Made by a program: the position numbers and the translations under genes. From an uncultured Candidatus Saccharibacteria bacterium (GTDB taxonomy: Bacteria; Patescibacteriota; Doudnabacteria; UBA920): a DNA stretch of 64,000 nt. The notes under the pieces were generated by a model that saw nothing but the letters and a program-made list of their open reading frames with translations, had not been told where the DNA came from and did no database searches. This document shows, piece after piece, positions 247 to 63,400 of this stretch. Location: contig CAZHIA010000008.1 of the NCBI GenBank assembly GCA_964532425.1, positions 13,224-77,223 of the forward strand. The letters are read 5' to 3'. Within the stretch, counting starts at the first letter, position 1. Every line of letters starts with the position of its first letter.

Positions 247-377
247 TTTTTCTTCATTCATGGTATAATATTTAAAAGTTCCAATACGTAAGCCTGTTTT
301 TCTCGAAACAAATATTCCATCTGGCCAGACCATTGGACATCCTTCCTTTGTCTTTCTTTACTTAATACAAACTTAAA

Positions 378-393
378 TCCCGTCCCCACGGGA
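378..393 (+). promoter_or_regulatory. conserved 5' leader hairpin of paralog 1 (tcccg-tcccca-cggga), followed by AGAAA and about 22 nt to the ATG
   Basis: An equivalent hairpin plus AGAAA sits at the same distance upstream of all four paralogous genes (3833-3847, 44855-44870, 60409-60421). An A/T-rich -10-like hexamer (taatac) lies about 10 nt upstream. Confidence 0.45.
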
Positions 394-404
394 AGAAATC
401 AACA

Positions 405-3137
405 TTGAAGCACTCTATGTTCAAAAAACGCTTCTCAATGGCAGCCGTGCTCTGTCTGGCCCTTGCGGCCCTGCTGCCATCTTCGAGTTCGGCTTTAACT
501 TTAGCCGAACTGACCGGTACGGTAGCGAATTCCTCCTACACCCCGGTCACCATCACCTCAGCAACGAATAAGACCATAACCATTACGGCCACCCCGCTGT
601 CTTTTGCCAGCAACCAGTGGATGTACCAGGTCTCATGGAACCGGACCAAGAATGCCAAAGGATCTTTGTACGTCTCCTTAAAGTCCAACAACGGCACGAA
701 AGTTGCTGCGGTAGCTACCGCAGATCAGGCAGGATCGACTACCTTTACCGCTCTGCCTTCTACTGCTTACCGGGTCGAATTCTACTCCCAGCCAAATGGC
801 AAGGGCAGCCTGCTTGTCCGCAAGTACTTTACGGCACTGGCGGCAGATAAAGCGGTGGTGGGGAATTATAACCCTGCAAATTACAGCTCATTATATTCCG
901 GATTAACCGGAGTGGTTACGTCGGGTGGTAATCCTGCCACAGCTACTCCCGGAGCCACCAGCGGGTATACCCCGTCAGCCCAATTGATCCTCAGCCTTGC
1001 GTTGCCGGGCCAAGACCAGGCTATAAATAGTTCCAGTGGGTTAGATACTCCCGTAGAGGCCATTAGTACCAAAGTCGGCGGTCCTATTCCCATGAACAGC
1101 TCAGGCTTGGTTGTGGTTCGTCTGGCTTACCAGGGCAACGACGGCAAGTGCTATATGGCTAACCGCGACGGCACGTTCCTATTGCCGACTACGAACTGCA
1201 GTACTCTACCGAAATTACCGAATTCCAATTCAACTGTCTCTTTGTACGATATACCGTCCGTAGCGACTCCGTCTTTTAACTGGAATGCAGGCGGCGGCCA
1301 GTGCGCCTTCTGGGACAAGGATCAGCTGACAAAACAGCCATTCCTCAATCAGGCTATCTGTGGCACCATGGCCGGCCAGCCTATGCCGCCGACGAACTTC
1401 TGTGCCACGTACCCGAACGACTCCACGTGTGCCGGCGTCACTCAATCTGCACAAAAGATTCTTGATATGATCGCCGCAGTAGGACAAACCCAAAATATCG
1501 GCAGTACCGGAGGTTCTGATGCAGAAGTTGAAAGCATGAGCACCAGGGTTGGAGGTCCGATTCCCATGAACAACTCCGGATTAGTAGTTGTGCGTCTTGC
1601 GTATAAGGGCAATGACGGCAAATGCTACCTTTCCAACCGCGACGGTACATTCCTCCTGCCGACCACCAACTGCGGCAACCTGCCCACACTGCCAAATTCC
1701 AATAGCACCGTTTCTCCTTATGACATCAAGCCGGTAGCAACTTCTAATTTTAATTGGCTCGCAGGTTACGGTCAGTGTGCCTTCTGGGACAAGGACCGTA
1801 CAACCGGCGTGCCCTTCCTGAATCAGTCTATCTGCGGCACCATGGCCGGCCAGCCCATGCCAGTCATGAATTTCTGCGCAGCGCACCCTAATGATGAAAC
1901 ATGTAAAGGATATGTTCAATCCGCCCAAAACATTTTGAGTCTCGCTTTACCGGGCCAAGACCAGGCTATAAATAGTTCCAGTGGGTTAGATACTCCCGTA
2001 GAGGCCATTAGTACCAAAGTCGGCGGTCCTATTCCCATGAACAGCTCAGGCTTGGTTGTGGTTCGTCTGGCTTACCAGGGCAACGACGGCAAGTGCTATA
2101 TGGCTAACCGCGACGGCACGTTCCTATTGCCGACTACGAACTGCAGTACTCTACCGAAATTACCGAATTCCAATTCAACTGTCTCTTTGTACGATATACC
2201 GTCCGTAGCGACTCCGTCTTTTAACTGGAATGCAGGCGGCGGCCAGTGCGCCTTCTGGGACAAGGATCAGCTGACAAAACAGCCATTCCTCAATCAGGCT
2301 ATCTGTGGCACCATGGCCGGCCAGCCTATGCCGCCGACGAACTTCTGTGCCACGTACCCGAACGACTCCACGTGTGCCGGCGTCACTCAATCTGCACAAA
2401 AGATTCTTGATATGATCGCCGCAGTAGGACAAACCCAAAATATCGGCAGTACCGGAGGTTCTGATGCAGAAGTTGAAAGCATGAGCACCAGGGTTGGAGG
2501 TCCGATTCCCATGAACAACTCCGGATTAGTAGTTGTGCGTCTTGCGTATAAGGGCAATGACGGCAAATGCTACCTTTCCAACCGCGACGGTACATTCCTC
2601 CTGCCGACCACCAACTGCGGCAACCTGCCGAAGCTGCCGAACTCTAACTCAACCGTATCCTCAAGCGATATTCCCGCCATGGCCACCCCTTCATTCAATT
2701 GGATTGCCGGTTTTAGCCAATGTGCGTTTTGGGACAAAGACCAGATGACAAAAGAACCGTTCCTAAACCAGGCTATCTGTGGCACCATGGCCGGCCAGCC
2801 CATGCCGCCGACGAACTTCTGTACCGTGTATCCGAACGACCCAACCTGTAAGTTGCCAGCCGATGCTCCGTCCCAAGTGTATTATTCTGTCGGCCAAGTT
2901 ATCGACCCGAGACAGACATATGACTACGCAGGGCGTGCCATGTCCAAGAGTCAGTTCTGCGCAACGTATCCTTTCCAGAATTGTGGTGATTATTACGACA
3001 GCTGGTACCAGACTGGCGCTGCTCCGCAAACTTCCAGTCAGACCGCAACCGGCAAGGCGTGTTATGCGGCTTCGGATTGCTCGTCGGGCCAGGCCTGTTT
3101 CGGAGTATCTTACGGCAAGGCAGGAACCTGCCAATAG
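405..3137 (+). CDS. giant secreted Cys-rich tandem-repeat protein, paralog 1 of 4 (signal peptide, conserved N-domain, 4 x ~157-aa repeat modules with VGGPIPMN / NFNW / CAFWDKD / ICGTMAGQPMP motifs, Cys-rich C-tail)
   Basis: 910-aa ORF with an N-terminal hydrophobic signal peptide ending SSSA-LTLAELTG. Strong internal periodicity and many NxS/T sequons. The N-terminal ~140 aa are nearly identical to those of ORF 3872-6469. Confidence 0.85.
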   Translation: MKHSMFKKRFSMAAVLCLALAALLPSSSSALTLAELTGTVANSSYTPVTITSATNKTITITATPLSFASNQWMYQVSWNRTKNAKGSLYVSLKSNNGTKVAAVATADQAGSTTFTALPSTAYRVEFYSQPNGKGSLLVRKYFTALAADKAVVGNYNPANYSSLYSGLTGVVTSGGNPATATPGATSGYTPSAQLILSLALPGQDQAINSSSGLDTPVEAISTKVGGPIPMNSSGLVVVRLAYQGNDGKCYMANRDGTFLLPTTNCSTLPKLPNSNSTVSLYDIPSVATPSFNWNAGGGQCAFWDKDQLTKQPFLNQAICGTMAGQPMPPTNFCATYPNDSTCAGVTQSAQKILDMIAAVGQTQNIGSTGGSDAEVESMSTRVGGPIPMNNSGLVVVRLAYKGNDGKCYLSNRDGTFLLPTTNCGNLPTLPNSNSTVSPYDIKPVATSNFNWLAGYGQCAFWDKDRTTGVPFLNQSICGTMAGQPMPVMNFCAAHPNDETCKGYVQSAQNILSLALPGQDQAINSSSGLDTPVEAISTKVGGPIPMNSSGLVVVRLAYQGNDGKCYMANRDGTFLLPTTNCSTLPKLPNSNSTVSLYDIPSVATPSFNWNAGGGQCAFWDKDQLTKQPFLNQAICGTMAGQPMPPTNFCATYPNDSTCAGVTQSAQKILDMIAAVGQTQNIGSTGGSDAEVESMSTRVGGPIPMNNSGLVVVRLAYKGNDGKCYLSNRDGTFLLPTTNCGNLPKLPNSNSTVSSSDIPAMATPSFNWIAGFSQCAFWDKDQMTKEPFLNQAICGTMAGQPMPPTNFCTVYPNDPTCKLPADAPSQVYYSVGQVIDPRQTYDYAGRAMSKSQFCATYPFQNCGDYYDSWYQTGAAPQTSSQTATGKACYAASDCSSGQACFGVSYGKAGTCQ
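1005..2629 (+). repeat. perfect 945-bp tandem direct duplication inside paralog 1 (copy 1 1005-1684, copy 2 1950-2629; 680 bp at 100% identity, rest of each unit homologous)
   Basis: Read directly from the sequence. Identical minus-strand shadow ORFs at 1230-1493 and 2175-2438 (offset 945). Each 945-bp unit holds two ~157-aa protein modules. Confidence 0.9.
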
Positions 3138-3206: not shown

Positions 3207-3257
3207 TATTCGGTTAATCCAATGCTGGGTATTACTGTTTAGTGGTATAATAAATAC

Positions 3258-3803
3258 ATGCTTATCTATACTATATTTTTGTTTCTCATGCTGCTTTTGG
3301 CAATTGTAGTTTTGATTGTCATTACCAGCGCGTTTTTAGGTTTTTTACTCACCCGCGTGCCGTTCGTACCGACGGCTGCTAAGGACATTGAATTTGTAGT
3401 TGATGAATTAGGGATCTCAGGAAAAGATATCTTCTTTGACCTGGGTAGTGGAGACGGCAAGGTTGTTTTTTTAGTGCATGAACTCAGCGGCGCCAAATGC
3501 GTCGGATACGAACTTACCTGGTGGACCCATTTGCTGGCCAAGATCAAAGCAATGTTCAAAGGCGTGAGCCCGGATGTCCAGTTCAAGAATCAGAATTTTT
3601 TCAAACAGAGCTGGAGTGAAGCTGATTATGTGTATGGTTATCTCTATCCGCCTCTCATGGGCAGGGTAGAGGAGAAGTTCCTGAATGAATGTAAGCCGGG
3701 TAGTACGGCTGTTATTCGGGATTTTCCGCTGCCGAACTTAAAGCCAGTTGCAGTGTATAATCGGCCAAGGAACCATGAAATATATATTTATAAAAAACAG
3801 TAA
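3258..3803 (+). CDS. membrane-anchored class I SAM-dependent methyltransferase (small)
   Basis: N-terminal TM helix, then methyltransferase motif I DLGSGDGKVVF, with acidic and hydrophobic motifs downstream. Confidence 0.6.
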   Translation: MLIYTIFLFLMLLLAIVVLIVITSAFLGFLLTRVPFVPTAAKDIEFVVDELGISGKDIFFDLGSGDGKVVFLVHELSGAKCVGYELTWWTHLLAKIKAMFKGVSPDVQFKNQNFFKQSWSEADYVYGYLYPPLMGRVEEKFLNECKPGSTAVIRDFPLPNLKPVAVYNRPRNHEIYIYKKQ

Positions 3804-3832
3804 GCAATCTTTTTATAATCCAAATTAAGCAC

Positions 3833-3847: not shown

Positions 3848-3871
3848 AGAAACCAAATCACAAATTACCCT

Positions 3872-18516: not shown

Positions 18517-19533
18517 TCACTTTGCCAGATTCTTCGCTTCTCCTTTGCTAAACGCGACAATATTGTCTACGCTCGTCTGGAGAATTTCCCGCTTGGCTTC
18601 TTTTGAGTAGAATGCGATATGCGGAGTGTAAGCGACTTCGGGCAAGCCAATAAGTACATGGTCTTCAATGAGTGTGCGCATCTCTTCCTGGTGGTCTCCA
18701 TTCTGTACCAGAAGCTTCCATTCGTCCTGCAGCTGGCGTTCGCCTTCAATAACATCGAGTCCGACACCGGCCAGCAGCCCTTCTTTAACCGCATACAGAA
18801 TCGCTTCGGAATCGGCGACCTCGCCACGGCTGGTGTTGATGAGCAGAGAACCTTTTTTGACCAGGGCGATGTTGGTTTTGTTGATGAGATGGTGGGTGTC
18901 CTTGTTATACGGTACATGCAGGGTGATGACATCGGATTTTGCCAGCAGCTCGTCGAGCGTTACGTAGGTAAAACCCAGGCGGGTTGCAGCTTCCTGGTTG
19001 GGGTAGGCATCAAACGCCAGCATAGTCATGTCGAAACCTTTGGCGATTTGGGCGACATTCTGGCCGATGCGGCCGGTGCCCACAATACCGAGGGTCTTGC
19101 CCTGGAGGTTAAATCCTTCAAAACCGGTTATGTCGAAGCCTCGGCCGTCTTTCATTTGGCGGTAGGCGGCAAAGGCTTTGCGCGACAGACCGAGCATAAG
19201 GGTGAACGTGAATTCAGCTACAGTGCGGCTGCCATAGGCTGGGACCGTAGCAACCGGAATGTTCTTGCCGGCTGCGTACGCGATATCGATATGGTCGAAA
19301 CCCGTAGACCTGGTCTCGATGAATTTAAGATTTGGCAGTTTGTCTATGACGTCTTGCTTAACGACCGAACCGATAAAGACCGACACGGCATCCGCGTCCG
19401 CATATTGGGGGGCATTCTCGGGGGTTAATTTTTCTTCCACATAAGTGACCGTGGCTTGCAGCCCCGAAGCGGCCAGGAGTTCGGGAAGCACGGTTTTGTC
19501 TTCCTCATTGCACTCGAAAAAATAGATGTTCAT
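18517..19533 (-). CDS. D-isomer-specific 2-hydroxyacid dehydrogenase (D-lactate dehydrogenase-like)
   Basis: NAD-binding GKTLGIVGTGRIGQNVAQIAKGFDM and catalytic R/E/H positions. Overall architecture resembles LdhA. Confidence 0.75.
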   Translation of the reverse strand: MNIYFFECNEEDKTVLPELLAASGLQATVTYVEEKLTPENAPQYADADAVSVFIGSVVKQDVIDKLPNLKFIETRSTGFDHIDIAYAAGKNIPVATVPAYGSRTVAEFTFTLMLGLSRKAFAAYRQMKDGRGFDITGFEGFNLQGKTLGIVGTGRIGQNVAQIAKGFDMTMLAFDAYPNQEAATRLGFTYVTLDELLAKSDVITLHVPYNKDTHHLINKTNIALVKKGSLLINTSRGEVADSEAILYAVKEGLLAGVGLDVIEGERQLQDEWKLLVQNGDHQEEMRTLIEDHVLIGLPEVAYTPHIAFYSKEAKREILQTSVDNIVAFSKGEAKNLAK

Positions 19534-19614
19534 ATTTTAATTGACAAAAATGAACAAAATTGACAAAAATGAACAAAAATTACCGCAGTTCATTTTCGTC
19601 GTTTTTTCATTTTT
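19534..19614. repeat. AT-rich intergenic tandem repeat (2 x ttgacaaaaatgaacaaaa) plus inverted copy gttcatttt
   Basis: Read directly. Sits between the eno stop and the ldh-like start on the minus strand. Confidence 0.5.
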
Positions 19615-34777: not shown

Positions 34778-35359
34778 ATGCAATATTTAAACGAAAAAAT
34801 CCTTAAAGCGTTCCAATTCGCAGCCATTGCCCATACGGGCCAAAAGCGGAAAGATCCTTTTGCAACCCCCTATTTTTCCCATCCGGCGGCTGTGGCCATG
34901 GTCCTCGCCAGGGCCGGTTTTAGCGATGAACTGGTGATGGCCGGGGCGCTGCACGATACGATAGAGGATGCTACGGTGACCTTGCCGCAATTACAGCAGG
35001 AATTCGGCGACCATGTGGCGGAATTGGTGTTCGGCGTTACGGAAGATAAAAAGCTCCCCTGGGCTGAACGCAAAAAGGCTTATAACGAAAGCATTGCAAT
35101 CGCTTCCGACGAGGTGAAGATTTTAAGCGCGGCTGATCTTTTGGCGAACTGCACTTCGCTGCTCCTGGTTCTGCAAGCAGGGGTAAACCCATGGCCCAGT
35201 TTTTCGAAAGATCCTAAGGAATATGTCCAGCGTGTTCGCGCAGTCGACCGCCAGCGTCTGGCCTGCATTAAAGAGAACTTCTATCATCCGCTCGTGGACG
35301 AATTGGAGAAGGTGATGGGGGAAGTGGAGAAGCTTACGGATAAACTTAACTGGAATTGA
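34778..35359 (+). CDS. HD-domain phosphohydrolase (SpoT/Mesh1-like (p)ppGpp hydrolase domain)
   Basis: AIAHTGQKRK...PYFSHPAAVAMVL...ALHDTIEDA HD motif. 193 aa from MQYLNEK. Confidence 0.6.
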   Translation: MQYLNEKILKAFQFAAIAHTGQKRKDPFATPYFSHPAAVAMVLARAGFSDELVMAGALHDTIEDATVTLPQLQQEFGDHVAELVFGVTEDKKLPWAERKKAYNESIAIASDEVKILSAADLLANCTSLLLVLQAGVNPWPSFSKDPKEYVQRVRAVDRQRLACIKENFYHPLVDELEKVMGEVEKLTDKLNWN

Positions 35360-35410
35360 CAAAATTTAAATAATTTAAAAAATTGACAAAAACGGCAAAC
35401 GATAATTTCT

Positions 35411-35470: not shown

Positions 35471-35520
35471 GGTCGTTTTGCTCAATTTTGTCAATTATGT
35501 CATTTTTGTCAATATAACTT

Positions 35521-40144: not shown

Positions 40145-43100
40145 TCAGAAAATGAAGCGCAGGCCGAGCTGCAGGCGTCGGGCATTGGTGCCGTCAGGGA
40201 ATCCCTGGGCGGCCGTGCCAGTGCCGAGACTGGTTTGATAGGTAAGCGTGGGAACGCCGGAGACGAGCGCATACGTGTACGCGCGGGTATTCACCGAAGT
40301 GAAGTACGGGCTGTTGAACACGTTGAATCCGTCAAACGTGAACATGGCTTTGTAGCGTTCATGAATCGTGACGGATTTGCTCAGGCGCAGGTCAATGCGG
40401 GTGATCTGGTCAACGAGCACGCTGGACGTCGGTAGGAATGGCGCACGGGTGTTGCCGCCGTACCCGTTCAAAGTGCTACCGGTGAAAGCGACAGCATAGC
40501 CGGCAGGCACATAGGCCGAAGACAGTGAGACCACCGGTGTAACAGCCGGGGCTGACTGGAACGTACCCAGGCCTGAAAGGCTCCAGCCGTTGAGCAAATA
40601 CTTCAAGCGATGGTCATTGCTGACGAGTGTCGGGCTGTAGCTGCCGTTCATGACGAGCCGGTGCCGGACATCGAGCGCAGCCGTGCCTTTTTCCACGCGG
40701 TAGTTGCCGGGCATGTAGCTCTGCGGGCCGCCGCTGGCGAAAATATTTGGCGTGCCGGCGAAGCCTTGTCCCTGATCAATCGCATGCGACCATGTATAGG
40801 CGGCGCTGCCGGTCAGTCCGTGACTGAAACGCTTGCTCAATTGGACAGACAGGCCGTTGTACCAGCTGTTCAAGCCGGCATCAATGATGTTGATGCGGCT
40901 GTAGCGAGTATCGACGCGGTTGCTGCGAATGTAGACCGGCGTCGAATATGTGAATGCCTGCGTCGGGTTGCCCGGGGTGCCGATGACGTTGTAAGTCACG
41001 GTCGGGCCCGGGGCGCCGATGTTGATGTCATTGACCGAGGTCAGATGCAGTCCACGGCTCCACATGCCGGAGACCGTGAGTGCGAGGTCGCGGGCAAGCT
41101 GCCGTTCAATGGCGAGATTTGCTTGCTGCGTGTACGGAGCGCGGAAGTCGCTGGCTGCAATATTCAGACTAACCGAACCGGCCGGAGGGTTGTAGTTTCC
41201 GGAGTTCGGCAGCACATTCGGGAAGACCGGTCCTGCCGCCTTGTCAGCGGCATTCGACGATTGCAGCGAGATCGACTTTTGGTAGATGCCGTTACCGAGG
41301 AAGAACGTATTGATAAGTCCTCCCGGGTAGCGGGCATAAAACATGCCGTATCCTCCGCGCAGGACAGTCTTGCTTTGGCTGTCGAGCGAGTAGGCAAAGC
41401 CGATGCGCGGCGCAAAGGCTCCGGCAAACGTCGGGATGACCCCGGTAGCCTTATAGTCAGGGTTGGTGACGGTCGGCTGGGGTAGGGCGCTGTAGTCGTA
41501 GCGGACGCCTAAGTTCAAGGTCAGACGCTGCGTGATTTTGAGCTGGTCCTGAACGAAGAACGCGTAATCCTTAATCGCGAAGTCGACCAGGGGATTGCCG
41601 ATAGTCTGCGAAAAAGACGTCCAGTTTTTGGTTCCAGTCGTATTGCCGGTCAGGTCAGCCGCCAGAGCGCTGAATGACGGATAGCTGTAGGTACCGGTGC
41701 GGTTGAACAGCATATTCGTCAGGTCGCGTGTGCGCATGAACTCAAAACCGAACTTGACGGTCTGGGAGCCTTTGATCCAGGTGAGCGTATCCGCAATTTG
41801 GTGGCGCGTTTCGATCGGGTTCAGGCGCGGATAATCCGTAGCCGTTCCAAGGTAGCTCTGTCCCGTGATGCTGATGCCCAAGAAACCTTGCGGCACAATA
41901 CTCGAGGGAAGAGCTAAGCTCTGGTTCGGGTAGTCGAACAACTTGTCGTAAAACCAGTTGTATCGAAGCTCGTTGACCATGGTCGGCGTGGGGATGAAGG
42001 TCCACGAGGCGCGGCCGTATTTGTCGCGCACCGAGGAATCGACGTTGTTGCCGACGCCATTTCCGTTATTCAGTACTGCCTGGGTTTGCAGCCCGTTGGG
42101 TGAGACCCAGCGAAGCATATTCATCCCGACAGTAAACGAGTGGCGTTCATTCGGCCGGTAGTCAATCTTGGCATACCCAAGGTTCTGGTTGACCGAACGC
42201 GGAACGGTTTGAAATTCGCGATTGAGGAACGTCCGGGCGGCCGCACATTGTTCCGGCGTAGCCGGGGCGCCGCAGGTGCCGATGAACTGGCCGGTAGTGC
42301 TAAACAGCGGATTTCCTGCTCCGGTGATTGAAGCGATGAGAGGGAAGTCCCGCCACAAGCCTTCGTAGTTAACGAAGTAGAACAGCTTGTCGCGGATGAT
42401 CTTGCCACCAAGGCTGCCGCCGAGCTGGTTGCGCTTTTCGGTCGGGTTGAACCGCTTGCCCGTGGTCGGGTCAATGGTTGCAAAAATATCCGTGGCATTA
42501 AAGTTCTGGTTCCGGAAGAACCAGTACCCGGTTCCGTGGAATTCATTGCCGCCGCTGCGGGTCACCGTGTTGACGACACCGCCCATGGCGCGTCCGAATT
42601 CAGCGGAAAAGTTGTTGGAAACAACTTGGAACTCCTGTACCGCATCTTGTCCGATTTGGGATCCGATGCGGGTACGGCCGGCGTTTTCATTATAGTAACC
42701 GTTGGTCGTATCGCCGCCGTCCGTTAGGAAGGTGTTGCCGCCGGCAATGCCGCGGAACGAGATAAGCCCGAACGTACCGTCAGGAACGACCGCGGGCGAC
42801 AGGAGAACGAACGAGTCCACGCGGCGGCCATTGATCGGGAGATCCTGAATCTGGGTCGATCCAACCACTTGTGACACGTCGGTCTTGGTGGAATCGACAA
42901 TAGGCGCTGCAGCCTCGACTTGCACTGAGGTTGCGGCGCTGGCCAGCTGGAGTTCGATGTTGAGCATCAAATTTTGGCCGACCAGGACCTGGATGTCCTT
43001 GGCTTTGTACTCGGCAAAACCGGGACTTGAGACCATAACGCTGTAGCCTTCCGCAGGCGTCAGCGAGGGAGCGGAGAATATTCCGGCCTCGGTTGTCGCC

Positions 43101-43282
43101 ATAGCGCGCTGAATACCTTTGGTTTCATTGACAATGAAGACCTTGGCATTCGGAATGGCAGCGCCTGACGGGTCATGTACGGAGCCGGAAATGGCTCCGA
43201 GACCGGCCACAGACTGGCCGAAGGCCAGCGAGGCGAAGATAAACAAAAATACGACTCCCGCGAGCGCGGTAAATCGTCTCAT
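40145..43282 (-). CDS. TonB-dependent outer-membrane receptor with N-terminal carboxypeptidase-regulatory-like domain
   Basis: Signal peptide, CarbopepD_reg-like beta-sandwich (SGSVHDPSGAAIPNAKVFIVNETKG...), plug domain (TFLTDGGDTTNGYYN), a 1045-aa beta-barrel and C-terminal LRFIF with a terminal aromatic. Locally higher GC. Confidence 0.8.
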   Translation of the reverse strand: MRRFTALAGVVFLFIFASLAFGQSVAGLGAISGSVHDPSGAAIPNAKVFIVNETKGIQRAMATTEAGIFSAPSLTPAEGYSVMVSSPGFAEYKAKDIQVLVGQNLMLNIELQLASAATSVQVEAAAPIVDSTKTDVSQVVGSTQIQDLPINGRRVDSFVLLSPAVVPDGTFGLISFRGIAGGNTFLTDGGDTTNGYYNENAGRTRIGSQIGQDAVQEFQVVSNNFSAEFGRAMGGVVNTVTRSGGNEFHGTGYWFFRNQNFNATDIFATIDPTTGKRFNPTEKRNQLGGSLGGKIIRDKLFYFVNYEGLWRDFPLIASITGAGNPLFSTTGQFIGTCGAPATPEQCAAARTFLNREFQTVPRSVNQNLGYAKIDYRPNERHSFTVGMNMLRWVSPNGLQTQAVLNNGNGVGNNVDSSVRDKYGRASWTFIPTPTMVNELRYNWFYDKLFDYPNQSLALPSSIVPQGFLGISITGQSYLGTATDYPRLNPIETRHQIADTLTWIKGSQTVKFGFEFMRTRDLTNMLFNRTGTYSYPSFSALAADLTGNTTGTKNWTSFSQTIGNPLVDFAIKDYAFFVQDQLKITQRLTLNLGVRYDYSALPQPTVTNPDYKATGVIPTFAGAFAPRIGFAYSLDSQSKTVLRGGYGMFYARYPGGLINTFFLGNGIYQKSISLQSSNAADKAAGPVFPNVLPNSGNYNPPAGSVSLNIAASDFRAPYTQQANLAIERQLARDLALTVSGMWSRGLHLTSVNDINIGAPGPTVTYNVIGTPGNPTQAFTYSTPVYIRSNRVDTRYSRINIIDAGLNSWYNGLSVQLSKRFSHGLTGSAAYTWSHAIDQGQGFAGTPNIFASGGPQSYMPGNYRVEKGTAALDVRHRLVMNGSYSPTLVSNDHRLKYLLNGWSLSGLGTFQSAPAVTPVVSLSSAYVPAGYAVAFTGSTLNGYGGNTRAPFLPTSSVLVDQITRIDLRLSKSVTIHERYKAMFTFDGFNVFNSPYFTSVNTRAYTYALVSGVPTLTYQTSLGTGTAAQGFPDGTNARRLQLGLRFIF

Positions 43283-43591
43283 ATACCGAATCCTCCTTAA
43301 GGAGTTGAAATGTGATTTCCCAAAGCACGCCCCTGAAGCTGTGTGAGGTGGGATGTTTGAGAAATGGTTTGATCGAGATCAATCCACTTTTGGTATAGCG
43401 AAAAAACAGCAATCTGTCTAATTGTTATTTTTCATAATTTGTGATATAATTAAGATAGATTTTATATAAAGCTGCTTAAGAAAAGCGAAAGTTTAATGTA
43501 TCTGACAAACGAGTATGTTTGTCAGGATTAATTGCTTTTTTGAGCATTCGAAATAAAAGGTCTGGCAGCGTCAAAATAATTTTTATATACC

Positions 43592-44818
43592 ATGGATATG
43601 GTTAAAATAAAACGGGTCAAGCGCCAGAAAAAGCGGAGCACTGCAGCCGAAAAGATTATGGCGGGTTTGGGACTTGGAACGACCTTGCTCGGTATGACCG
43701 GCGGTGCAGTAGCGCCAAAAAAAAGCAATAAGGCTATAGTCCGCACCAACGCTTCATCACGAGCCCGTCAAATCGGCTTGATGATGCACCAGGCCCTGCA
43801 GTCAAGCGTGGGTACGCCGACGGCCAAGGCGGCAGAAACCGATGAAGAATGGGAGGGTGATGACGAAGCTACCCCAACCGATACGACCCCGAGCGATGAC
43901 GTGGAAAATTCCGATGATGCTGCGTCTTCCAATGATTGGCAATATGGGACACCGGACGATGCCGAGACAGAAACCAGTGAAAGCGGTACGGAAGCCACAG
44001 ACGATACCGATACCGATATCGAAAACGGAGAGGATGCCGTAGGGGAGGGGCAGGATATTGAATTGGCTGATGATCAGGAAACGGCGGATGAAACCGAACT
44101 GGCTGAAGTTGATAATGAGGACGTAAATATTGTGAACGGACAGGTGTATACAACGAACGGGAGTACGGTTGCCAATAACCAAAGTGGAACCAGCGTGTTA
44201 GATTCGCATGGGGTCTTGGCCATAAACGGGCAGGTCTATAATCAGGGAGATACTGATGTGGAAGAGTCAGAGGATGGTTCAGGTAATTTGGTTGCAGCTG
44301 CCGCTGACAGCATCGAGATGGCCAATAATTTCGGCAATCCCCAAGGCTTACAGATGCCGACCGGTTACCAAACTTTCCAGGATGAGAGCGAAACGTCTGA
44401 AGCAGAGGCGGATTCCGAAGCGGAGCCGGCTGCTGCCCGTACCTATAAGGTTAAGAAAGGTGACACCTTATGGGGTATTTCGCGAAAGTATTATGGCCGC
44501 GGCATCCTGTGGCGGAAGATTATGAATGCCAATGCAGACAAAGTAACTGAGCCGAGGCTTCTTCAGATCGGTACTGTGTTGACTATCCCGCCGCTTGAAC
44601 AGTCGGATCTGGAATCTATTCCCAGAGCTGCCGTGAAAACAAAAACCCAAACCCATGCTTCCCCGTCAACCGGTGATCCATTCGGCAGCCAGCAGTATGG
44701 ATATGATTCCGGCTCAAGCAATAGCGGGGGATATACTCCGGGATTCCTACTGCAGGATTTTCAGACACAAAACAACACTGACTCGTCACAAGAGGGATCT
44801 GATATCGAGAGTGAATAA
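43592..44818 (+). CDS. LysM-domain protein with long acidic (D/E/T-rich) low-complexity region
   Basis: LysM: [18 protein letters not shown]...IMNANADKV...[11 protein letters not shown]-terminal TM/signal segment. Confidence 0.65.
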
Positions 44819-44854
44819 TTTCATTTTAGGTTAATTCAACCTTATATCAACTAA

Positions 44855-44870: not shown

Positions 44871-44891
44871 GGAAATAAACACACACGTTCT

Positions 44892-47982: not shown

Positions 47983-48777
47983 CTAGCGCAGGACTGACAT
48001 ATCCTTAACCGATGTGGCAGTAATAGCAGGACTCTCCGCCAGGTGTTTGCCCTGAACGCGGACCGTGTCGTTGTAATTGAACTGGTTGAGGGTGGCGGAT
48101 TTGCCGTTTTTCTTTTGCAGCTTGGCTTTGCTGATATCGACCGAATAGATGACATTATTGGCCACGACGGTCATCCAACCGTCGCCTTTCATGGTCAGAG
48201 TGCCGGTTATGTCGATATTGACCAAGCGCATGGTGGCCTGGACATCGGTTGCTTTTATGTCGGAATTGGAACGGTCCCATATGCCTTTTACCGTGGCATT
48301 CATTCCTGTTTGCAGGTCTCTGAGTCCGCCATTGCTGCCGCTGACTTTGAACATGGTGTAACTGTCGGTATGAATGGTTTGGGTTCCGAACTGGCTGCTT
48401 TGGAGCAGGAAACTTGAGGTGCTGGCATCAACCTGCGTAATTTTTCCGTTAAACGTTCCGGTGTGAGTATAGAGCGACAGATCTCTCACGGTAGCGGCGT
48501 TCATACTGTTGTCTGGCCACAGTGTACCGCTGACTTCGATCTTGTCGCCGGCAAGTATCTCCGAAAATTGCATAGGGGTTCCGTTCTTGCGCATGAGGGT
48601 CGCCTTCGAGGTTTCTGCCACGTAGACAGCCCCGCTGCCGGCCTTGAAGGCGATCTGGTTGCCCCAGGTGTGCGTAACTGTTCCGGCCAGGGTTTGCTGG
48701 ACTGCCGCCGTAGCGGTTGCCGGAAGGAGGCAGGTTATGGCTAGAGCCATGAGGCCTGCAGTACCGATTTTTTTCAT
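47983..48777 (-). CDS. secreted protein with two internal ~90-aa repeats (DUF5666-like)
   Basis: Signal peptide MKKIGTAGLMALAITCLLPATATA. The duplicated segment contains S-K-A-x-L-x-x-K-N-G. Confidence 0.5.
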   Translation of the reverse strand: MKKIGTAGLMALAITCLLPATATAAVQQTLAGTVTHTWGNQIAFKAGSGAVYVAETSKATLMRKNGTPMQFSEILAGDKIEVSGTLWPDNSMNAATVRDLSLYTHTGTFNGKITQVDASTSSFLLQSSQFGTQTIHTDSYTMFKVSGSNGGLRDLQTGMNATVKGIWDRSNSDIKATDVQATMRLVNIDITGTLTMKGDGWMTVVANNVIYSVDISKAKLQKKNGKSATLNQFNYNDTVRVQGKHLAESPAITATSVKDMSVLR

Positions 48778-48980
48778 AGGAATGGAGTAAATTTTGTTTC
48801 TAAAAAGTTGCCTTATTTACGCCCCCAGTATACACCGAAACGCCTGGCGTGTTAAGGGAAGAGTGTTGCGGGGATAAAACGACTTTTGTTACGCAGGAAA
48901 ATATTTTTTTGATTGCAATTTCGGTTTGTAATGGAATATAGCCGTAAAAAATCTTGCATAACAAGGAGTGCCATCGTAGA

Positions 48981-54668: not shown

Positions 54669-54753
54669 TTACTTTTCCTCACAAATATCGTAAACAGTGG
54701 TATACTATCTTTAAGGAAATCTTCCTTAAAGAAACCAAATTAACTTATTCTAT

Positions 54754-56766
54754 ATGAGCAATAAGAAGCCCCTGGCGGTGCTGTTTCTCTCGGCCTGTGT
54801 TGTGGCCGGGATGGTAGCGCTCCAGGTCCAGGCTGCCAGCACCCCAAAAGCGGCAGTGAAAAAAACGTCTGTCTCTGGCGTGGTAAAATTCACCAGCACT
54901 GCGGACTTTAAGAATTATCTGGCCAAGTCCCGCAATGTTACCGGCGGGGGAGGGTTCGGCATGTCCCGGTCCGGAGGTTTAGCTCTTCCGACTATGGCCC
55001 TGGAAGCAGCGCCGGCTCCAAGCGCTTTTGCTGCCAACTCTAAATCAGACAGTATGGTCGGCAGCGCCGGAGCTACTCAGTACTCCCAGACCAATGTGCA
55101 AGTTGCCGGCATTGATGAGCCGGACATTGTTAAAACCGATGGACAATCCATTTTCTTCTCGCAGCAAGGGTATGGCTATATGTACGACTACATGCCATCG
55201 CCTACGCTTAAGGTCGGTTCCGCGGAAGCGGTTATGCCGCCGGGTTATCAGTCCGGCGGGACCCGTGTTATTGATGCCTTGCCTGCCCAGGACGCCAAAG
55301 TTGATTTTACAATCAGCAAGACGGGGCAATTGCTGCTTTCCGGCAACAACCTGCTGGTCTTTGATTATGATAAAGTCTACGGCTACGACGTGACAGACCG
55401 CTCAAACCCCAAACAGGTCTGGAGCGTTAAGTACGAGAATAGCAACAGTATGGTCTCGGCCCGGCTTTCGAACGGCAAGATCTATCTGGTGACAAAGGGA
55501 AATATCCGCCAGTCCGCGCCGTGCCCAATGCAACCGCTCTCTGCTAACGGAACCATGATCGCCATCCCGTGCACCGGCATATACCATCCGGTCAGTCCGG
55601 TACCGAGCCCGGTGGTCTTTACAGCGTTCGTTATCAACCCTTCTTCCGGTGCAGTAGAGAATAAAGTATCATTCGTGGGCTCGGATAGCCAACCGCTGGT
55701 CTATATGTCAGACGGTTCGCTCTATGTTACATATGCCCTGCCGGAACAGACCTTAAAACTCATGATCGATTTCTTAAAGCAGCGCGCTCAGGACTTGGTG
55801 CCCGGTGACGTGATTGCCCGGCTCGACAGACTGAATGGGTACGATATCAGCGACAGCTCGAAATTGAACGAAATGACTCTTATCTTGGACCAATATGAGA
55901 GCGGGCTGAGTGACGACGACCGTAGCCGTATGGATACAGAGCTGCAGAACCGCATGCAGGATTTTGCCAAAGCGCACAAGCGCGATTTGGGTCAGACCGG
56001 GATTGTCAGAATTAATTTGGGAAACTTTGCCGTCGCGGCTTCCGGCAGCGTGCCGGGAACGCCGCTCAACCAGTTCTCGCTTGATGAGTACCAAGGGTAC
56101 CTGCGCGTGGCTACGACCGTAGGTGGTAATTGGTCTTCCTTGTGGCGCATGGGCCGGGTGGAGTCGGCTAACGACGTATATGTACTCGACGGTAATTTGA
56201 AGACAGCGGGACAGATTCAGGATTTGGGGGTGACCGAACGTATTTATTCCGCCCGTTTCATCGGCGACCGCGGCTACCTCGTAACCTTCCGCCAGACTGA
56301 TCCATTCTATGTCTTGGACTTGAGCCGTCCATCGGCTCCGGTCATGGCCGGCGAGCTCAAGATCCCGGGTTTCTCATCGTACTTGCATCCGCTGGCGCCG
56401 AACCGCATCCTGGGAGTGGGAATGGAAAATTCCAAGGTCAAGCTGTCGCTCTTTGATGTCAGTGACCCGAAAAATCCATCCGAGATCTCGAAATATTCAC
56501 TGGATGCCTACTGGACCGACGTATCTAACGATCACCATGTCTTCCTACAGGATGAACGCCATCATATTTTCTTCATCCCGGGAGGGGACAAGGGGTATGT
56601 ACTTAGCTATGAAGGCGATCAGATCAAGCTTAACAAGGTCATTAGCAGCATCCAGGCCAAGCGCGCCGTGTATGTCGGCGATTATCTCTACATTCTTGGT
56701 TCCGACAAGATGGTCGTCGTCGACGAACAGAGTTGGGACAAGGTTAAGGAAGTGAGTCTGGATTAG
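54754..56766 (+). CDS. secreted beta-propeller-domain protein (COG4880-like)
   Basis: Signal peptide. The C-terminal region, with repeated hydrophobic-strand motifs (YVLD, YLVT, YVLS, YILG) and FDVSDPKNP, resembles the COG4880 secreted propeller family common in archaea and small-genome bacteria. Confidence 0.5.
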   Translation: MSNKKPLAVLFLSACVVAGMVALQVQAASTPKAAVKKTSVSGVVKFTSTADFKNYLAKSRNVTGGGGFGMSRSGGLALPTMALEAAPAPSAFAANSKSDSMVGSAGATQYSQTNVQVAGIDEPDIVKTDGQSIFFSQQGYGYMYDYMPSPTLKVGSAEAVMPPGYQSGGTRVIDALPAQDAKVDFTISKTGQLLLSGNNLLVFDYDKVYGYDVTDRSNPKQVWSVKYENSNSMVSARLSNGKIYLVTKGNIRQSAPCPMQPLSANGTMIAIPCTGIYHPVSPVPSPVVFTAFVINPSSGAVENKVSFVGSDSQPLVYMSDGSLYVTYALPEQTLKLMIDFLKQRAQDLVPGDVIARLDRLNGYDISDSSKLNEMTLILDQYESGLSDDDRSRMDTELQNRMQDFAKAHKRDLGQTGIVRINLGNFAVAASGSVPGTPLNQFSLDEYQGYLRVATTVGGNWSSLWRMGRVESANDVYVLDGNLKTAGQIQDLGVTERIYSARFIGDRGYLVTFRQTDPFYVLDLSRPSAPVMAGELKIPGFSSYLHPLAPNRILGVGMENSKVKLSLFDVSDPKNPSEISKYSLDAYWTDVSNDHHVFLQDERHHIFFIPGGDKGYVLSYEGDQIKLNKVISSIQAKRAVYVGDYLYILGSDKMVVVDEQSWDKVKEVSLD

Positions 56767-60193: not shown

Positions 60194-60218
60194 CTCTGGG
60201 GTATAGGGTGCCCCTATG

Positions 60219-60247
60219 GCCGCCTTGCTTGTAAGGCGGCTTTTTTT
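60219..60247 (+). terminator. rho-independent terminator after the CDF gene
   Basis: gccgcctt-gcttgt-aaggcggc plus T7. Confidence 0.65.
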
Positions 60248-60408
60248 ATTCGCATAATTATGCTATAATATATGTACTTACCGGTGATCCTGTGCTGATG
60301 AGCACGGTACAACCTGTCTTGAAATCAAAGCATAATCTCAACGCCTGGTTCCACTCGCGGTATTTCTTTCCGCCGCTTATTTTGCTCGTACATAATAACA
60401 ATTTAAAA

Positions 60409-60421
60409 TCCCTTTTAGGGA
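60409..60421 (+). promoter_or_regulatory. conserved 5' leader hairpin of paralog 4 (tccct-ttt-aggga), followed by AGAAAAATTAAAAC and 19 nt to the ATG
   Basis: Same element as upstream of the other three paralogs. cataataac, a -10-like box, lies about 10 nt upstream. Confidence 0.45.
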
Positions 60422-60440
60422 AGAAAAATTAAAACATCCT

Positions 60441-63400
60441 ATGCTCAAAAAGCGTTTTTCATGGATGGCTATGCTCTGCCTGGCGCTGGCCGGTCTTTTG
60501 CCGTCCTCGGGTTCGGCTTTGACATTGGCCGATCTGACCGGTACTGTAGCTGCCTCAAGCTATAGTCCCGTGACCGTTACTTCGGCAGCTAACAAGACCA
60601 TCACCATAACAGCCACGCCGCTTTCATACAACAACAGCCAGTGGACATACCAGATTGCCTGGAACCGGGCCAAGAACGCCCAAGGTTCGCTTTATATTTC
60701 GCCGAAGTCCAATGCTTCGACCAAAGTTGTCAGTATAAGTCCGGCTGACCGGGCTGGTTCGTCGTCTGTGGTCCTGCAGCCTTCTACGGCCTATCGTGTG
60801 GAATTCTACAGCTCGCCGAATGCCAAAGGCAGCCTGCTCGTCCGCAAGTATTTCACGACCCGGCAGGCTGACCTGAGCCAGGCTTTTATGCTCAATAGCG
60901 GATCAGCGGGCAGCACCTATTACAACAATAATTCAACTTATTCGGGTCTCTCAGGGAATCTGAATGCAGCAACAGGGAATAGCGCCGTTTCTTCAACGGG
61001 TACAACCGGCCAAGCGCCTGCTTCCTACATGAGCGCCGTGACCATGGCACAGTGGAGCTGTGGCAGCGATGGTACGCACTGTATGGATAAATACGGCACA
61101 CAGGTCGGCCCGGGAATTGGCGCTAATTTGTATGCCAATGGCAGCTGCAGTCCTGACCGGATCACCGGAGCAGGAGTAGCCCAGGGCGGCACCGGCAACC
61201 CGACCTCCAACGTCGGACCAGGATTGGCTTGCAAGGTGCTCAATAAGAATTTTGTCGCTGCGATCGACTATACTGACGGCGGCAAGTGTTTTCACGTCGA
61301 TGATACCGGTACCTACCAGGTGGACTGCGGGATCATGAAAGCCATGACCGGCAGTATTCCTCCACCACTGCCGTCCGGATTCTCTCTGAATTCCATTTTG
61401 AACGCTTCCTTCGATGCCAATACCGGCGGTACATCTGTTGACTGGGGTCAATATCATGCCGAGTGTTCTCAGGTCAAATGGAACGGCCAGAACGGCTACG
61501 TGAACGGTATCCTCTGCGGCGGACCCGGGGCGACGGTGCCGACCAAGCAGCAGCTGGTGGATGCCATCAATCAGCAGTCTGCCGGCATCAACAATGGCAG
61601 TTCTCTTCTCTATAACGCCCAAATTACTCTTGGAGTTGACCAAGGCCGGGCGATTAACCAGTATGGCACCCAGGTCGGCCCGGGCATCGGTGCCAATTTA
61701 TCTGCCAACCCCGCCTGTAATCCGGATGCTATTAACGGGGCTGGTGTGACCCAGGGCGGCACTGGCAACCCGGCGTCCAACGTCGGACCGGGACTGGCCT
61801 GTAAGGTCCTCAACAAGAACTTCATTGCCCAAATGTGGTATAGCGACGCCTCCGGACAGTGCCATCACTTGGATGACACCGGTGACTATGTTATGGATCA
61901 GGCCATTTGTAAATGGGCCAATGGCGGCCATGTGCCTCCGCAGTTACCGGCCGGCTATTCCTTAGCTTCGATTATCAACGCCTCCTTTGATGCCAATACC
62001 GGCGGCACATCTGTGGACTGGGGCCAGTACGGCGCCCAGTGCAGCCAGGTGAAGTGGAATGGTACAAGCGGCTATGTGAATGGTATTCTGTGCGGCGGAC
62101 CGGGAGCGACTCGGCCGACCACGCAGCAGCTCATTGATGCTTATAAGCAGCAGGCGGCCGGCATCAATAATGGTAGCTCTATTTTGAGCAATGCCCAGAT
62201 CACATTAGGGGTTGACCAGGGCCGGGCCATAGACCAGTATGGCACCCAGGTCGGTCCGGGCATCGGCGCCAATCTTTATTCGGCGAGCGGCTGCAATCCT
62301 GACAATATCAATGGTGCCGGTGTGACCCAAGGTGGTACCGGCAATCCGGCATCCAACGTCGGGCCGGGCCTAGCCTGCAAAGTGGTCAACAAGAATTTTA
62401 TTGCCCAGATGTGGTATAGCGACAGCCAGGGCAGGTGCCATCACTTGGACGATAATGGTGACTTTGTGCTCGACAATGCCATTTGCACGGGTGTGCTCGG
62501 TCATATGCCGCCGCAGTTGCCAGCTGGCTACTCATTAGCCTCCATAATCAATGCTTCGTTTGATGCCAACACCGGTGGTACTTCCGTGGACTGGAACCAG
62601 TACGGCGCCCAGTGCAGCCAGGTGAAGTGGAATGGCCAGACCGGGTATGTGAACGGTATTCTGTGCGGCGGACCGGGAGCGACGGTACCGACGACTCAAC
62701 AACTTATTACTGCCATCAACCAGCAAGCTGCTGGAGTCAACAATGGCAGTGGCATATTGAATAATGCCATTCATATCCAGGATGATCAGGGTCGCGGCAT
62801 TAACATGTACGGATCCCAGGTCGGGCCGGGCATCGGTCAAAATCTCTACTCTAACTCTAGCTGCAATCCGGACAATATAATCGGTGCGGGCGATCCGAAC
62901 GGCGGCAATGGCGGTAATCCGGCATCGAACGTAGGACCGGGGTTGGCCTGCAAGGTCCTCAACAAGAACTTTATTGCCCAGATGTGGTATACCGACGCCT
63001 CTGGTCAGTGCCATCACTTGGATGATACCGGTGATTATGTGTTCGATGCTTCCATCTGCAAGTGGGCTAATGGCGGAAAACTTCCGCCGCAGTTGCCGTC
63101 CGGATATTCTTTGAGCTCTATTGTGAATGCTTCGTTTGATGCTAATACGACCGGTAACAGCGTTGATTGGTCCCAGTACGGTGCCCAGTGCAGCCAGGTC
63201 CGGTGGAATGGTTCTTCCGGTTACGTGAACGGCATCCTCTGCGGCGGGCCGGGCGCTACTCAGCCGACCACGAGCCAGGTCCAGTCAGGTGCGAATGCGA
63301 CCCAGTCAGGTACCATGCCTGCCGGTTGTCTGCCAGGAATGGTCATGAGTCCGTTCGGACAGCCCTGCAATAGCAGCGGTTCGGGTACCGGCTCAACCGG

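Follow-up and report, generated by a model that had tools for sequence, protein, structure and literature searches.

A conserved leader stem-loop with a Shine-Dalgarno-less A-rich linker upstream of secreted-protein genes in a Doudnabacteria-like member of the Patescibacteria

The stretch of DNA analysed in this study (64,000 nucleotides (nt) of contig CAZHIA010000008.1; in the following, the window) contains four paralogous genes for secreted proteins (p1 to p4), each of which is preceded by a short hairpin at a fixed distance from its start codon. The element is a module that consists of a short stem-loop, whose 3' end is located 14–24 nt before the AUG, and of a G-poor, A/C-rich and unstructured linker, which follows directly and usually begins with RGAAA(Y). 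The hairpin, the RGAAA sequence and their constant spacing to the ATG are genuine, do not arise by chance and are subject to selection on structure. Most likely, this element protects the mRNA and sets up efficient translation, rather than marking the start of transcription. As an explanation we tentatively favor a cis-acting mRNA leader stem-loop, which would serve as decay barrier and as structural insulator beside a ribosome-loading tract that is independent of a Shine-Dalgarno (SD) sequence.

All four hairpins described in an earlier note on this DNA were confirmed and occur in the minimum-free-energy (MFE) folds (Table 1). Their distance to the ATG, given there as 19–24 nt, was measured as 23, 24, 21 and 19 nt for p1 to p4. 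The hairpin of p2 is located in a 68-nt spacer 3' of the gene 3258–3803, and that of p3 in a 73-nt spacer 3' of a gene encoding a LysM protein (43592–44818). The motif was also sought in front of unrelated genes of the window, and a fifth instance (p5) was found 24 nt upstream of a 2-kb gene (54754–56766), which encodes a secreted Beta_propel (PF09826) protein that is not homologous to the paralogs. The sequence of the p5 stem is unrelated to those of p1 to p4, and, compared with the paralogs, its purine arm and its pyrimidine arm have changed places. A sixth, partial instance is the linker of a gene for a secreted DUF5666 protein (47983–48777, minus strand), in which AGAAACAAAAT is located exactly 24 nt 5' of the ATG. 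All carriers of the motif encode proteins with a signal peptide.

A generic scan of both strands (128 kb) for a perfect stem of at least 5 bp with a loop of 3–7 nt, followed by RGAAA, yielded approximately 14 sites, five of which are located 19–24 nt 5' of a genuine start codon. Among the other genes of the window, a comparable hairpin ending 9–26 nt before the start was present in 3 of 29 cases, and one of these three appears, on visual inspection, to be the terminator of the gene before it.

Table 1. Positions and sequences of the leader elements, candidate promoters and start codons in the window, and leader elements of distant family members.
Feature	Position	Strand	Sequence	Remark
p1 stem-loop	378–393	+	TCCCGT-cccc-ACGGGA	6 bp; MFE fold, z = -2.5
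p2 stem-loop	3833–3847	+	TCCTG(T)-cct-(G)CAGGA	stem TCCTG/CAGGA plus U.G pair; MFE fold
p3 stem-loop	44855–44870	+	TCCCGC-ccct-GCGGGA	MFE fold
p4 stem-loop	60409–60421	+	TCCCT-ttt-AGGGA	MFE fold
p5 stem-loop	54711–54729	+	TTAAGGAA-atc-TTCCTTAA	8 bp, extendable to 11; MFE fold, z = -4.4
p1 linker	394–416	+	AGAAATCAACATT...	23 nt, G-poor, no SD
p2 linker	3848–3871	+	AGAAACCAAATCAC...	24 nt
p3 linker	44871–44891	+	GGAAATAAACACAC...	21 nt
p4 linker	60422–60440	+	AGAAAAATTAAAAC...	19 nt
p5 linker	54730–54753	+	AGAAACCAAATTAAC...	24 nt
Sixth, partial instance (linker)	48778–48801	-	AGAAACAAAATTTAC...	without stable hairpin; 24 nt before ATG 48777
p1 start codon	417	+	ATG	
p2 start codon	3872	+	ATG	
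p3 start codon	44892	+	ATG	
p4 start codon	60441	+	ATG	
-10-like hexamer, p1	363–368	+	TAATAC	
-10-like hexamer, p2	3814–3819	+	TATAAT	
-10-like hexamer, p3	44843–44848	+	TATATC	
-10-like hexamer, p4	60391–60396	+	CATAAT	
Perfect extended -10	261–269	+	TGGTATAAT	just 3' of terminator 215–243; 108 nt before p1 hairpin
Perfect extended -10	3243–3251	+		of the leaderless-looking upstream gene 3258–3803
Perfect extended -10	43442–43450	+		upstream of the LysM gene 43592–44818
Perfect extended -10	60261–60269	+	TGCTATAAT	just 3' of terminator 60218–60241; 139 nt before p4 hairpin
Extended -10	54698–54706	+	TGgTATACT	4 nt before p5 hairpin
L085 leader			AGAAACAAAG	no G+C helix; AGAAAC starts 24 nt before ATG
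L086 leader				helix ambiguous; 9 nt to ATG
L087 helix			TCCCAT-aggt-ATGGGA	then GAAAAG; 15 nt to ATG
L088 helix, first gene			CCCTTATT-gcggaaat-AATAGGGG	then AGAAATATAAAC; 16 nt to ATG
L088 helix, second family gene				13 bp; ends ~20 nt before ATG called at 4867
L089 helix			TCCGC-atgtac-GCGGA	then real SD; 14 nt to ATG

The leaders of six distant family members from other assemblies (L085, L086, L087, two genes of L088, and L089) were examined as well. Their DNA has no nucleotide similarity to the window, and the N-terminal domains of the helix-bearing homologs are only about 36–46% identical to that of p1. For the comparison of the stems, eight clear helices were lined up from the stem base and the pair types were tabulated by a script, because stems this short slipped out of register in MAFFT and RNAalifold alignments. 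The outer three pairs are mostly U-A, C-G and C-G, with the TCC/GGA triplets kept in six and the CC/GG core in seven of the eight instances. Stem positions 4, 5 and 6 are occupied by five, four and five pair types, respectively, and no mismatch occurred. The loops vary in length (3–9 nt) and in sequence (CCCC, CCT, CCCT, TTT, ATC, AGGT and so on). Since loop sequence and length vary while the stems always pair, it is the structure that is selected. The actual evidence is that 9 of 11 leaders, of the family or associated with it, contain a helix in the corresponding position, compared with about 10% of the control genes, and that the sequence changes at the same time; the sequence 5' of the paralog hairpins is unalignable. 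The helix is thus upheld by compensatory changes among the paralogs, in the unrelated gene and in the homologs of other assemblies, so that the claim of selection on structure rather than sequence, made originally for four copies, applies more widely.

Two further observations concern the leaders of the homologs. In L089 (769–785), the SD sequence UAAGG 3' of the hairpin can pair with CCUUA just 5' of the AUG, and this second small helix would mask the SD. A 12-mer, ATTATTTCGTGT, is present in the leaders of both L088 (2398–2409) and L089 (711–722), where it adjoins extended -10 boxes; it precedes the box in L088 and comes after it in L089.

Directly 3' of the hairpins, the sequences AGAAAT (p1), AGAAAC (p2), GGAAAT (p3) and AGAAAA (p4) were found. 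Of the A-rich element proposed previously, the RGAAA part therefore stands, and the following (N)AAAC holds only loosely. The p5 hairpin is followed by AGAAACCAAAT, and the p5 and p2 linkers agree in all of their first 11 nt, which stand equally far from the ATG. RGAAAYMAAA occurs 11 times in the window, and three of these occurrences are located exactly 24 nt 5' of the starts of genes for secreted proteins. In the six motif genes, the last 24 nt in front of the ATG contained less G (0.10 vs 0.19) and more A (0.47 vs 0.33) than in 27 other genes of the window, and folding of the start region was weaker (-1.8 vs -3.5 kcal/mol). In agreement with the earlier note, no canonical SD was present: within positions -22 to -1, none of the six motif genes but 8 of the 27 other genes possess an SD with a duplex energy of -6 kcal/mol or lower. 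An SD is hence found in only about a third of the genes tested. Many genes of the window look leaderless, with TATAAT 6–7 nt before the ATG (e.g. ATG 3258, 11049, 35521 and 43592).

The leaders at 80 loci with homologs of the beta-propeller protein (L002–L081; at most 52% identity; from other members of the candidate phyla radiation (CPR) and from DPANN) are likewise A/T-rich and SD-less. The absence of an SD is therefore normal for this lineage, and the helix is an added feature. The closest Beta_propel homologs span CPR bacteria and archaea, the latter including DPANN lineages (e.g. Aenigmarchaeota and Parvarchaeota) as well as Altiarchaeum and Archaeoglobus; this distribution suggests that the gene may have been exchanged between CPR and archaeal groups. 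Two other start sites were considered and rejected. A start of p1 at TTG 405 with GGGAAG as SD has no equivalent in the other paralogs and is also contradicted by the signal peptide of p1, which begins at ATG 417. A leaderless start or a transcription start site (TSS) at the AGAAA sequence would require a -10-like sequence at a place where none is present.

With regard to transcription, -10-like hexamers do exist upstream of the four paralog hairpins (Table 1), but they lie 6–13 nt from the hairpins and not 10–13 nt as proposed, are accompanied neither by a TG nor by a -35 element, were not called by a consensus promoter scan and are not conserved in the leaders of the homologs. In these genomes, a -10-like hexamer within an A/T-rich spacer says little about where transcription starts. 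The extended -10 sequence TGNTATAAT (at most one mismatch), on the other hand, is enriched in this genome (70 observed vs 41 expected sites), and 4 of its 10 perfect sites belong to transcription units of the paralogs. The box at 261–269 is likely the promoter of p1, and that at 60261–60269 likely the promoter of p4. Judged from the sequence, the boxes at 3243–3251 and 43442–43450 are likely to drive p2 and p3, respectively, in addition to the genes in front of them, with no plus-strand terminator in between. Placing the hairpin at +5 to +20 of the transcript, as had been proposed, depends on the weak hexamers; the strong extended -10 boxes are located farther upstream, and this placement is not supported. 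Only for p5 would the promoter geometry make the hairpin 5'-terminal (helix within about 0–4 nt of the 5' end); p1 to p4 would have such a terminal helix only if the weak hexamers were real. In L087, L088 and L089 the extended -10 boxes precede the helix by 49, 37 and 44 nt. As the distance to the ATG is 14–24 nt and that to the promoter ranges from 4 to about 140 nt, the helix is fixed to the start codon and not to the TSS. The helix is inside the transcript under every promoter scenario, and a role at the mRNA level, such as the stabilization suggested in the earlier note, is plausible.

If the extended -10 boxes are used, the 5' untranslated regions (UTRs) of p4 and p1 would be about 165 and 140 nt long. 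That of p4 would hold a further 7-bp helix (~60291–60308, seen by eye, unfolded) and a mini-open reading frame (ATG 60271, 8 codons). Rfam gave no family match in the long UTR regions of p1 and p4.

The tentatively favored explanation can be outlined as follows. Transcripts would begin at the extended -10 promoters further upstream or by read-through from the preceding gene. The helix would then act like a 5' cap as a local barrier, which stops decay that depends on the 5' end or proceeds in 5'-to-3' direction; alternatively, it might become the protected 5' end after processing (p1 to p4 and the homologs), and at p5 it might serve as the 5' end directly. By locking the adjoining G/C-rich segment into a local fold, the helix would insulate the start region from upstream RNA, so that the linker and the start codon are kept single-stranded for SD-independent loading of the 30S subunit. 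The outcome would be a stable and well-translated mRNA for abundant secreted surface proteins.

Several points weigh against this explanation. Its functional step is one that we purely infer. A stem of 5–6 bp, with an energy of about -5 to -10 kcal/mol, makes a modest barrier. With the likely promoters, 30–140 nt of unpaired RNA would lie 5' of the hairpin, so that classical protection of the 5' end would need prior processing in all cases except p5. Because the helices were located one sequence at a time, the 100% pairing is partly due to construction. The motif is also incomplete or missing in some places: folding of the leader of the DUF5666 gene gave no stable helix, so that the linker stands there without a hairpin; no G+C hairpin was found in the leader of L085; the helix of L086 is ambiguous; the leaders of the 80 beta-propeller homologs possess no hairpin; and no motif was detected in about 58 kb from the rpoD-syntenic relatives L082–L084, which have kept pyk-ppdK-dnaG-rpoD but not the paralogs. 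Finally, a pure barrier or insulator leaves the conserved RGAAA and the exact 24-nt spacing in unrelated genes unexplained.

The last point leads to another interpretation, in which the helix and RGAAAY at a fixed distance to the AUG are a lineage-specific, SD-independent recognition signal. The reader of such a signal would be the ribosome or a dedicated RNA-binding protein, and the signal would mark the mRNAs of secreted and surface proteins for translation, localization or co-regulation in this CPR clade. In the window, three genes that belong to different families have RGAAAY exactly 24 nt from the start, and so does a distant homolog of another metagenome. The short stems and this exact distance in unrelated genes and another organism leave room for a sequence-specific reading, either as translational control or regulator binding (see below) or as the recognition signal, the latter of which we regard as unlikely. 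If true, the signal would represent a novel type of element for initiation or targeting and not a generic stabilizer.

Related to this is the possibility of translational control, which we consider doubtful. Here, the 3' arm and the purines next to it (GGGAAGAAA, GGGAGGAAA, GGGAGAAAA, GGGGAGAAA) would resemble an SD or bind a protein and would be masked by the anti-SD-like 5' arm UCCC, and melting of the helix, an RNA-binding protein or a small RNA would co-regulate the secreted set. It would suit this idea that every carrier encodes a signal-peptide protein, that the outer U-A, C-G and C-G pairs together with RGAAA are the part conserved in sequence, that the position is fixed relative to the AUG, and that AGAAAC keeps a spacing of exactly 24 nt in unrelated genes and in L085, which suggests that the sequence is recognized. 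Duplex energies of the 3' arm with a generic 16S tail (the organism's own 16S is located outside the window) reach -10.3 kcal/mol for p3, -8.3 for L088 and -7.3 for L087; moreover, L086 has GGGA 9 nt from the ATG, and in L089 the hairpin is followed by a real SD. However, pairing to the 16S tail is weak in p1 and p2 (-4.3 kcal/mol), the SD-like tract in the window is 19–24 nt away from the AUG and thus too far for normal SD function, in p5 it is the 5' arm, at 35 nt from the AUG, that contains the purines, and the unconserved loops argue against loop-specific recognition. That the element has no dedicated function, its likeness being inherited by duplication or gene conversion of the paralog 5' ends and the hairpin being a relic or a chance palindrome, is disfavored and very unlikely. 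The N-terminal 145 amino acids of the paralogs are 65–80% identical, so their 5' ends are homogenized or recently shared; also, few independent lineages were examined, and L085 and L086 have no clear helix. Nevertheless, the helix persists with double compensatory changes next to unalignable upstream sequence, a helix of unrelated sequence with the same linker precedes the non-homologous gene p5, helices occur in homologs of about 36–46% identity that lack DNA similarity to the window, and the background rate is only about 10%.

A DNA operator, in which a dimeric transcription factor would bind the inverted repeat TCC...GGA and thereby co-regulate these genes, would be in line with the perfect inverted repeat near candidate promoters and with the frequently kept triplets and core. 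Yet the palindrome ranges from 13 to 24 bp with 3–9 nt between the arms instead of showing conserved half-sites at a fixed spacing, its inner half-site is free to vary as long as it pairs, the arms of p5 are wholly different, and the distance to the extended -10 promoters varies from 4 to about 140 nt. These variations fit RNA pairing and not a rigid protein dimer, and the probability of an operator is accordingly small. The earlier note had suggested processive antitermination or recruitment of a NusG paralog; such a signal for long operons could be of the RfaH/LoaP type or nut-like. LoaP- and nut-type systems use leader hairpins, and the hairpins studied here precede long genes for surface proteins. 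This reading is highly improbable. No leader contains an ops-like match (12-mer GGCGGTAGnnTG, at most two mismatches), the variable loops do not include a conserved boxB-type loop, and no NusG or KOW domain was detected among the 38 window proteins scanned with Pfam. In addition, gene length is only about 3 kb, the element also occurs before the 2-kb gene at 54754, and it tracks the start codon rather than the promoter. An Rfam scan of the whole window at the gathering threshold detected one tRNA only, and permissive scans of 200–460 and 60200–60480 gave only sub-threshold matches, located on the upstream terminators. With no ops-like sequence, conserved loop or NusG paralog in view, antitermination is unsupported. 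A consensus scan called the hairpins of p1, p2 and p4 terminator-like due to a T-run, so that they could be intrinsic terminators on the minus strand which stop antisense transcription. It did not call p3 and p5, though, no minus-strand gene ends at the hairpins, a T-run opposite the hairpin is missing in the homologs, and such terminators would not account for the fixed distance to the plus-strand ATG; we attach hardly any probability to this possibility.

The cis-acting leader stem-loop that we favor resembles several known systems. Stem-loops or other leader elements at the 5' end stabilize the mRNAs of ompA, papA, aprE, ermC and cryIIIA (reviewed in PMC3997798). As in the leaders of ompA and papA of Escherichia coli and of aprE and ermC of Bacillus subtilis, a short helix without a conserved loop is located upstream of the ribosome-binding region of genes for abundant exported proteins (PMC3997798), and the MFE folds and the pair table revealed a local stable helix that is free in sequence as long as it pairs. 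For helices of the ompA/aprE type, the site of action is no more than a few nt away from the 5' end; here, a comparable placement would follow from the promoter of p5 only. In cases of the papBA type, a longer transcript is processed and the helix then forms the protected 5' end, which would suit p2 and p3, as both lie behind another gene. What sets the present helix apart from ompA- and aprE-type leaders is its coupling to an A-rich linker that has no SD and in which RGAAA recurs.

The STAB-SD in the cryIIIA leader of Bacillus thuringiensis is an SD-like sequence far upstream of the start; the 30S subunit binds to it, and the mRNA is thereby stabilized (cited in PMC3997798). Purine-rich, SD-like tracts (GGGAGG, GGGGAG, GGGAAG) at a non-functional distance from the AUG are also present in the leaders described here. 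Unlike the STAB-SD, these tracts are base-paired in the stem, and the purine arm of p5 is on the other side; instead of single-stranded sequence with strong complementarity to 16S rRNA, paired tracts with energies from -4.3 (p1, p2) to -10.3 kcal/mol (p3) were found. The unusually long-lived mRNAs of S-layer proteins (slp/sap/eag), whose lifetime is ascribed to leader structure (PMC8056022), likewise encode highly expressed secreted surface proteins. Compared with those leaders, the present one is much shorter, and S-layer formation by this family is only a possibility. The pairing of a pyrimidine-rich 5' arm (UCCC/UCCU) with a GGGA/AGGA 3' arm near the start codon is reminiscent of SD-sequestering hairpins and RNA thermometers (ROSE, fourU), but characteristic bulges or U-tracts are absent and no thermometer family of Rfam was matched. 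SD sequestration works at a spacing of about 5–10 nt, which only L086 (9 nt) shows, the spacing being 19–24 nt in the window and 14–16 nt in L087 and L088. Small leader hairpins before long genes are also a feature of lambda nut boxB, RfaH ops and LoaP; the present element differs from these by the lack of a boxA, an ops sequence or a conserved loop and by its position, which is tied to the start codon.

The element is thus an uncatalogued cis-acting leader stem-loop of a familiar kind in a poorly studied lineage. Members of the Patescibacteria cannot be cultivated alone, and their interaction with the host depends on the cell surface. To our knowledge, almost nothing is known about post-transcriptional control in these bacteria, and no description of leader motifs in CPR was found in the literature. 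A covarying helix which is common to a dominant, variable family of surface proteins and to another secreted protein is a concrete and testable cis-element that bears on expression of the surface proteome in the absence of SD sites. The motif might furthermore be used as a marker of co-expressed surface genes in related metagenome-assembled genomes. If it is only a stabilizer or insulator, the mechanism is an ordinary one in an unusual lineage.

The window is a segment of a bacterial chromosome, with dnaG, rpoD, eno, pyk and ppdK among its genes. Its RpoD is 82–92% identical to proteins of Patescibacteria, and the named matches belong to Candidatus Doudnabacteria; by these sequence matches, the host is an uncultured, Doudnabacteria-like member of the Patescibacteria (CPR). 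The paralogs comprise 906, 865, 1003 and 1025 amino acids, which makes the previous designation as giant proteins an overstatement, and all possess a signal peptide. They share an N-terminal domain of 145 amino acids, and their downstream parts diverge. The genes are about 3 kb long and stand singly or second in short units. Four hairpin-bearing paralogs are indeed present, but the family is larger than the earlier note assumed when it spoke of all four. Positions 1–204 of the window are the 3' end of a fifth paralog and match the C-terminus of the database protein P0243 (831 amino acids), so that at least three paralogs are arranged in tandem at this locus (P0243, p1 and p2). The database holds two more close paralogs (P0245 and P0246) and about 90 more distant family members; an exhaustive HMMER search yielded 98 family members. 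A word-indexed protein search and pattern scans with the N-terminal domain against genome contigs, the protein database and metagenome contigs gave no match, which is a sensitivity artefact in view of the later HMMER result.

Cys-rich repeats make up the C-terminal parts of the paralogs, and a short tail, likewise rich in Cys, forms their end. In p1 (417–3137), an internal, near-exact duplication of about 315 amino acids was observed, and residues ~233–316 and 548–631 match the same segment of p4. The gene at 40145–43282 (minus strand) possesses a good SD and encodes a protein of 1045 amino acids with CarboxypepD_reg and OMP_b-brl_4 domains (E 2e-117), i.e. a beta-barrel of the outer-membrane type. 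This OMP_b-brl_4 beta-barrel is found beside a Patescibacteria-like RpoD, in a lineage that is thought to have no outer membrane.

Finally, a 10-mer, TTTTGTCAAT, is present in six exact copies, which occur in pairs at three intergenic spots (19540–19568, minus strand; 35355–35391, minus strand; 35486–35513, plus strand); at most one mismatch allowed, 12 matches vs 6.1 expected were counted. Two of these spots are located directly 5' of leaderless-looking genes, namely 18517–19533 (minus strand) and dnaG (35521), and the 10-mer may be a transcription-factor box or a box related to replication.

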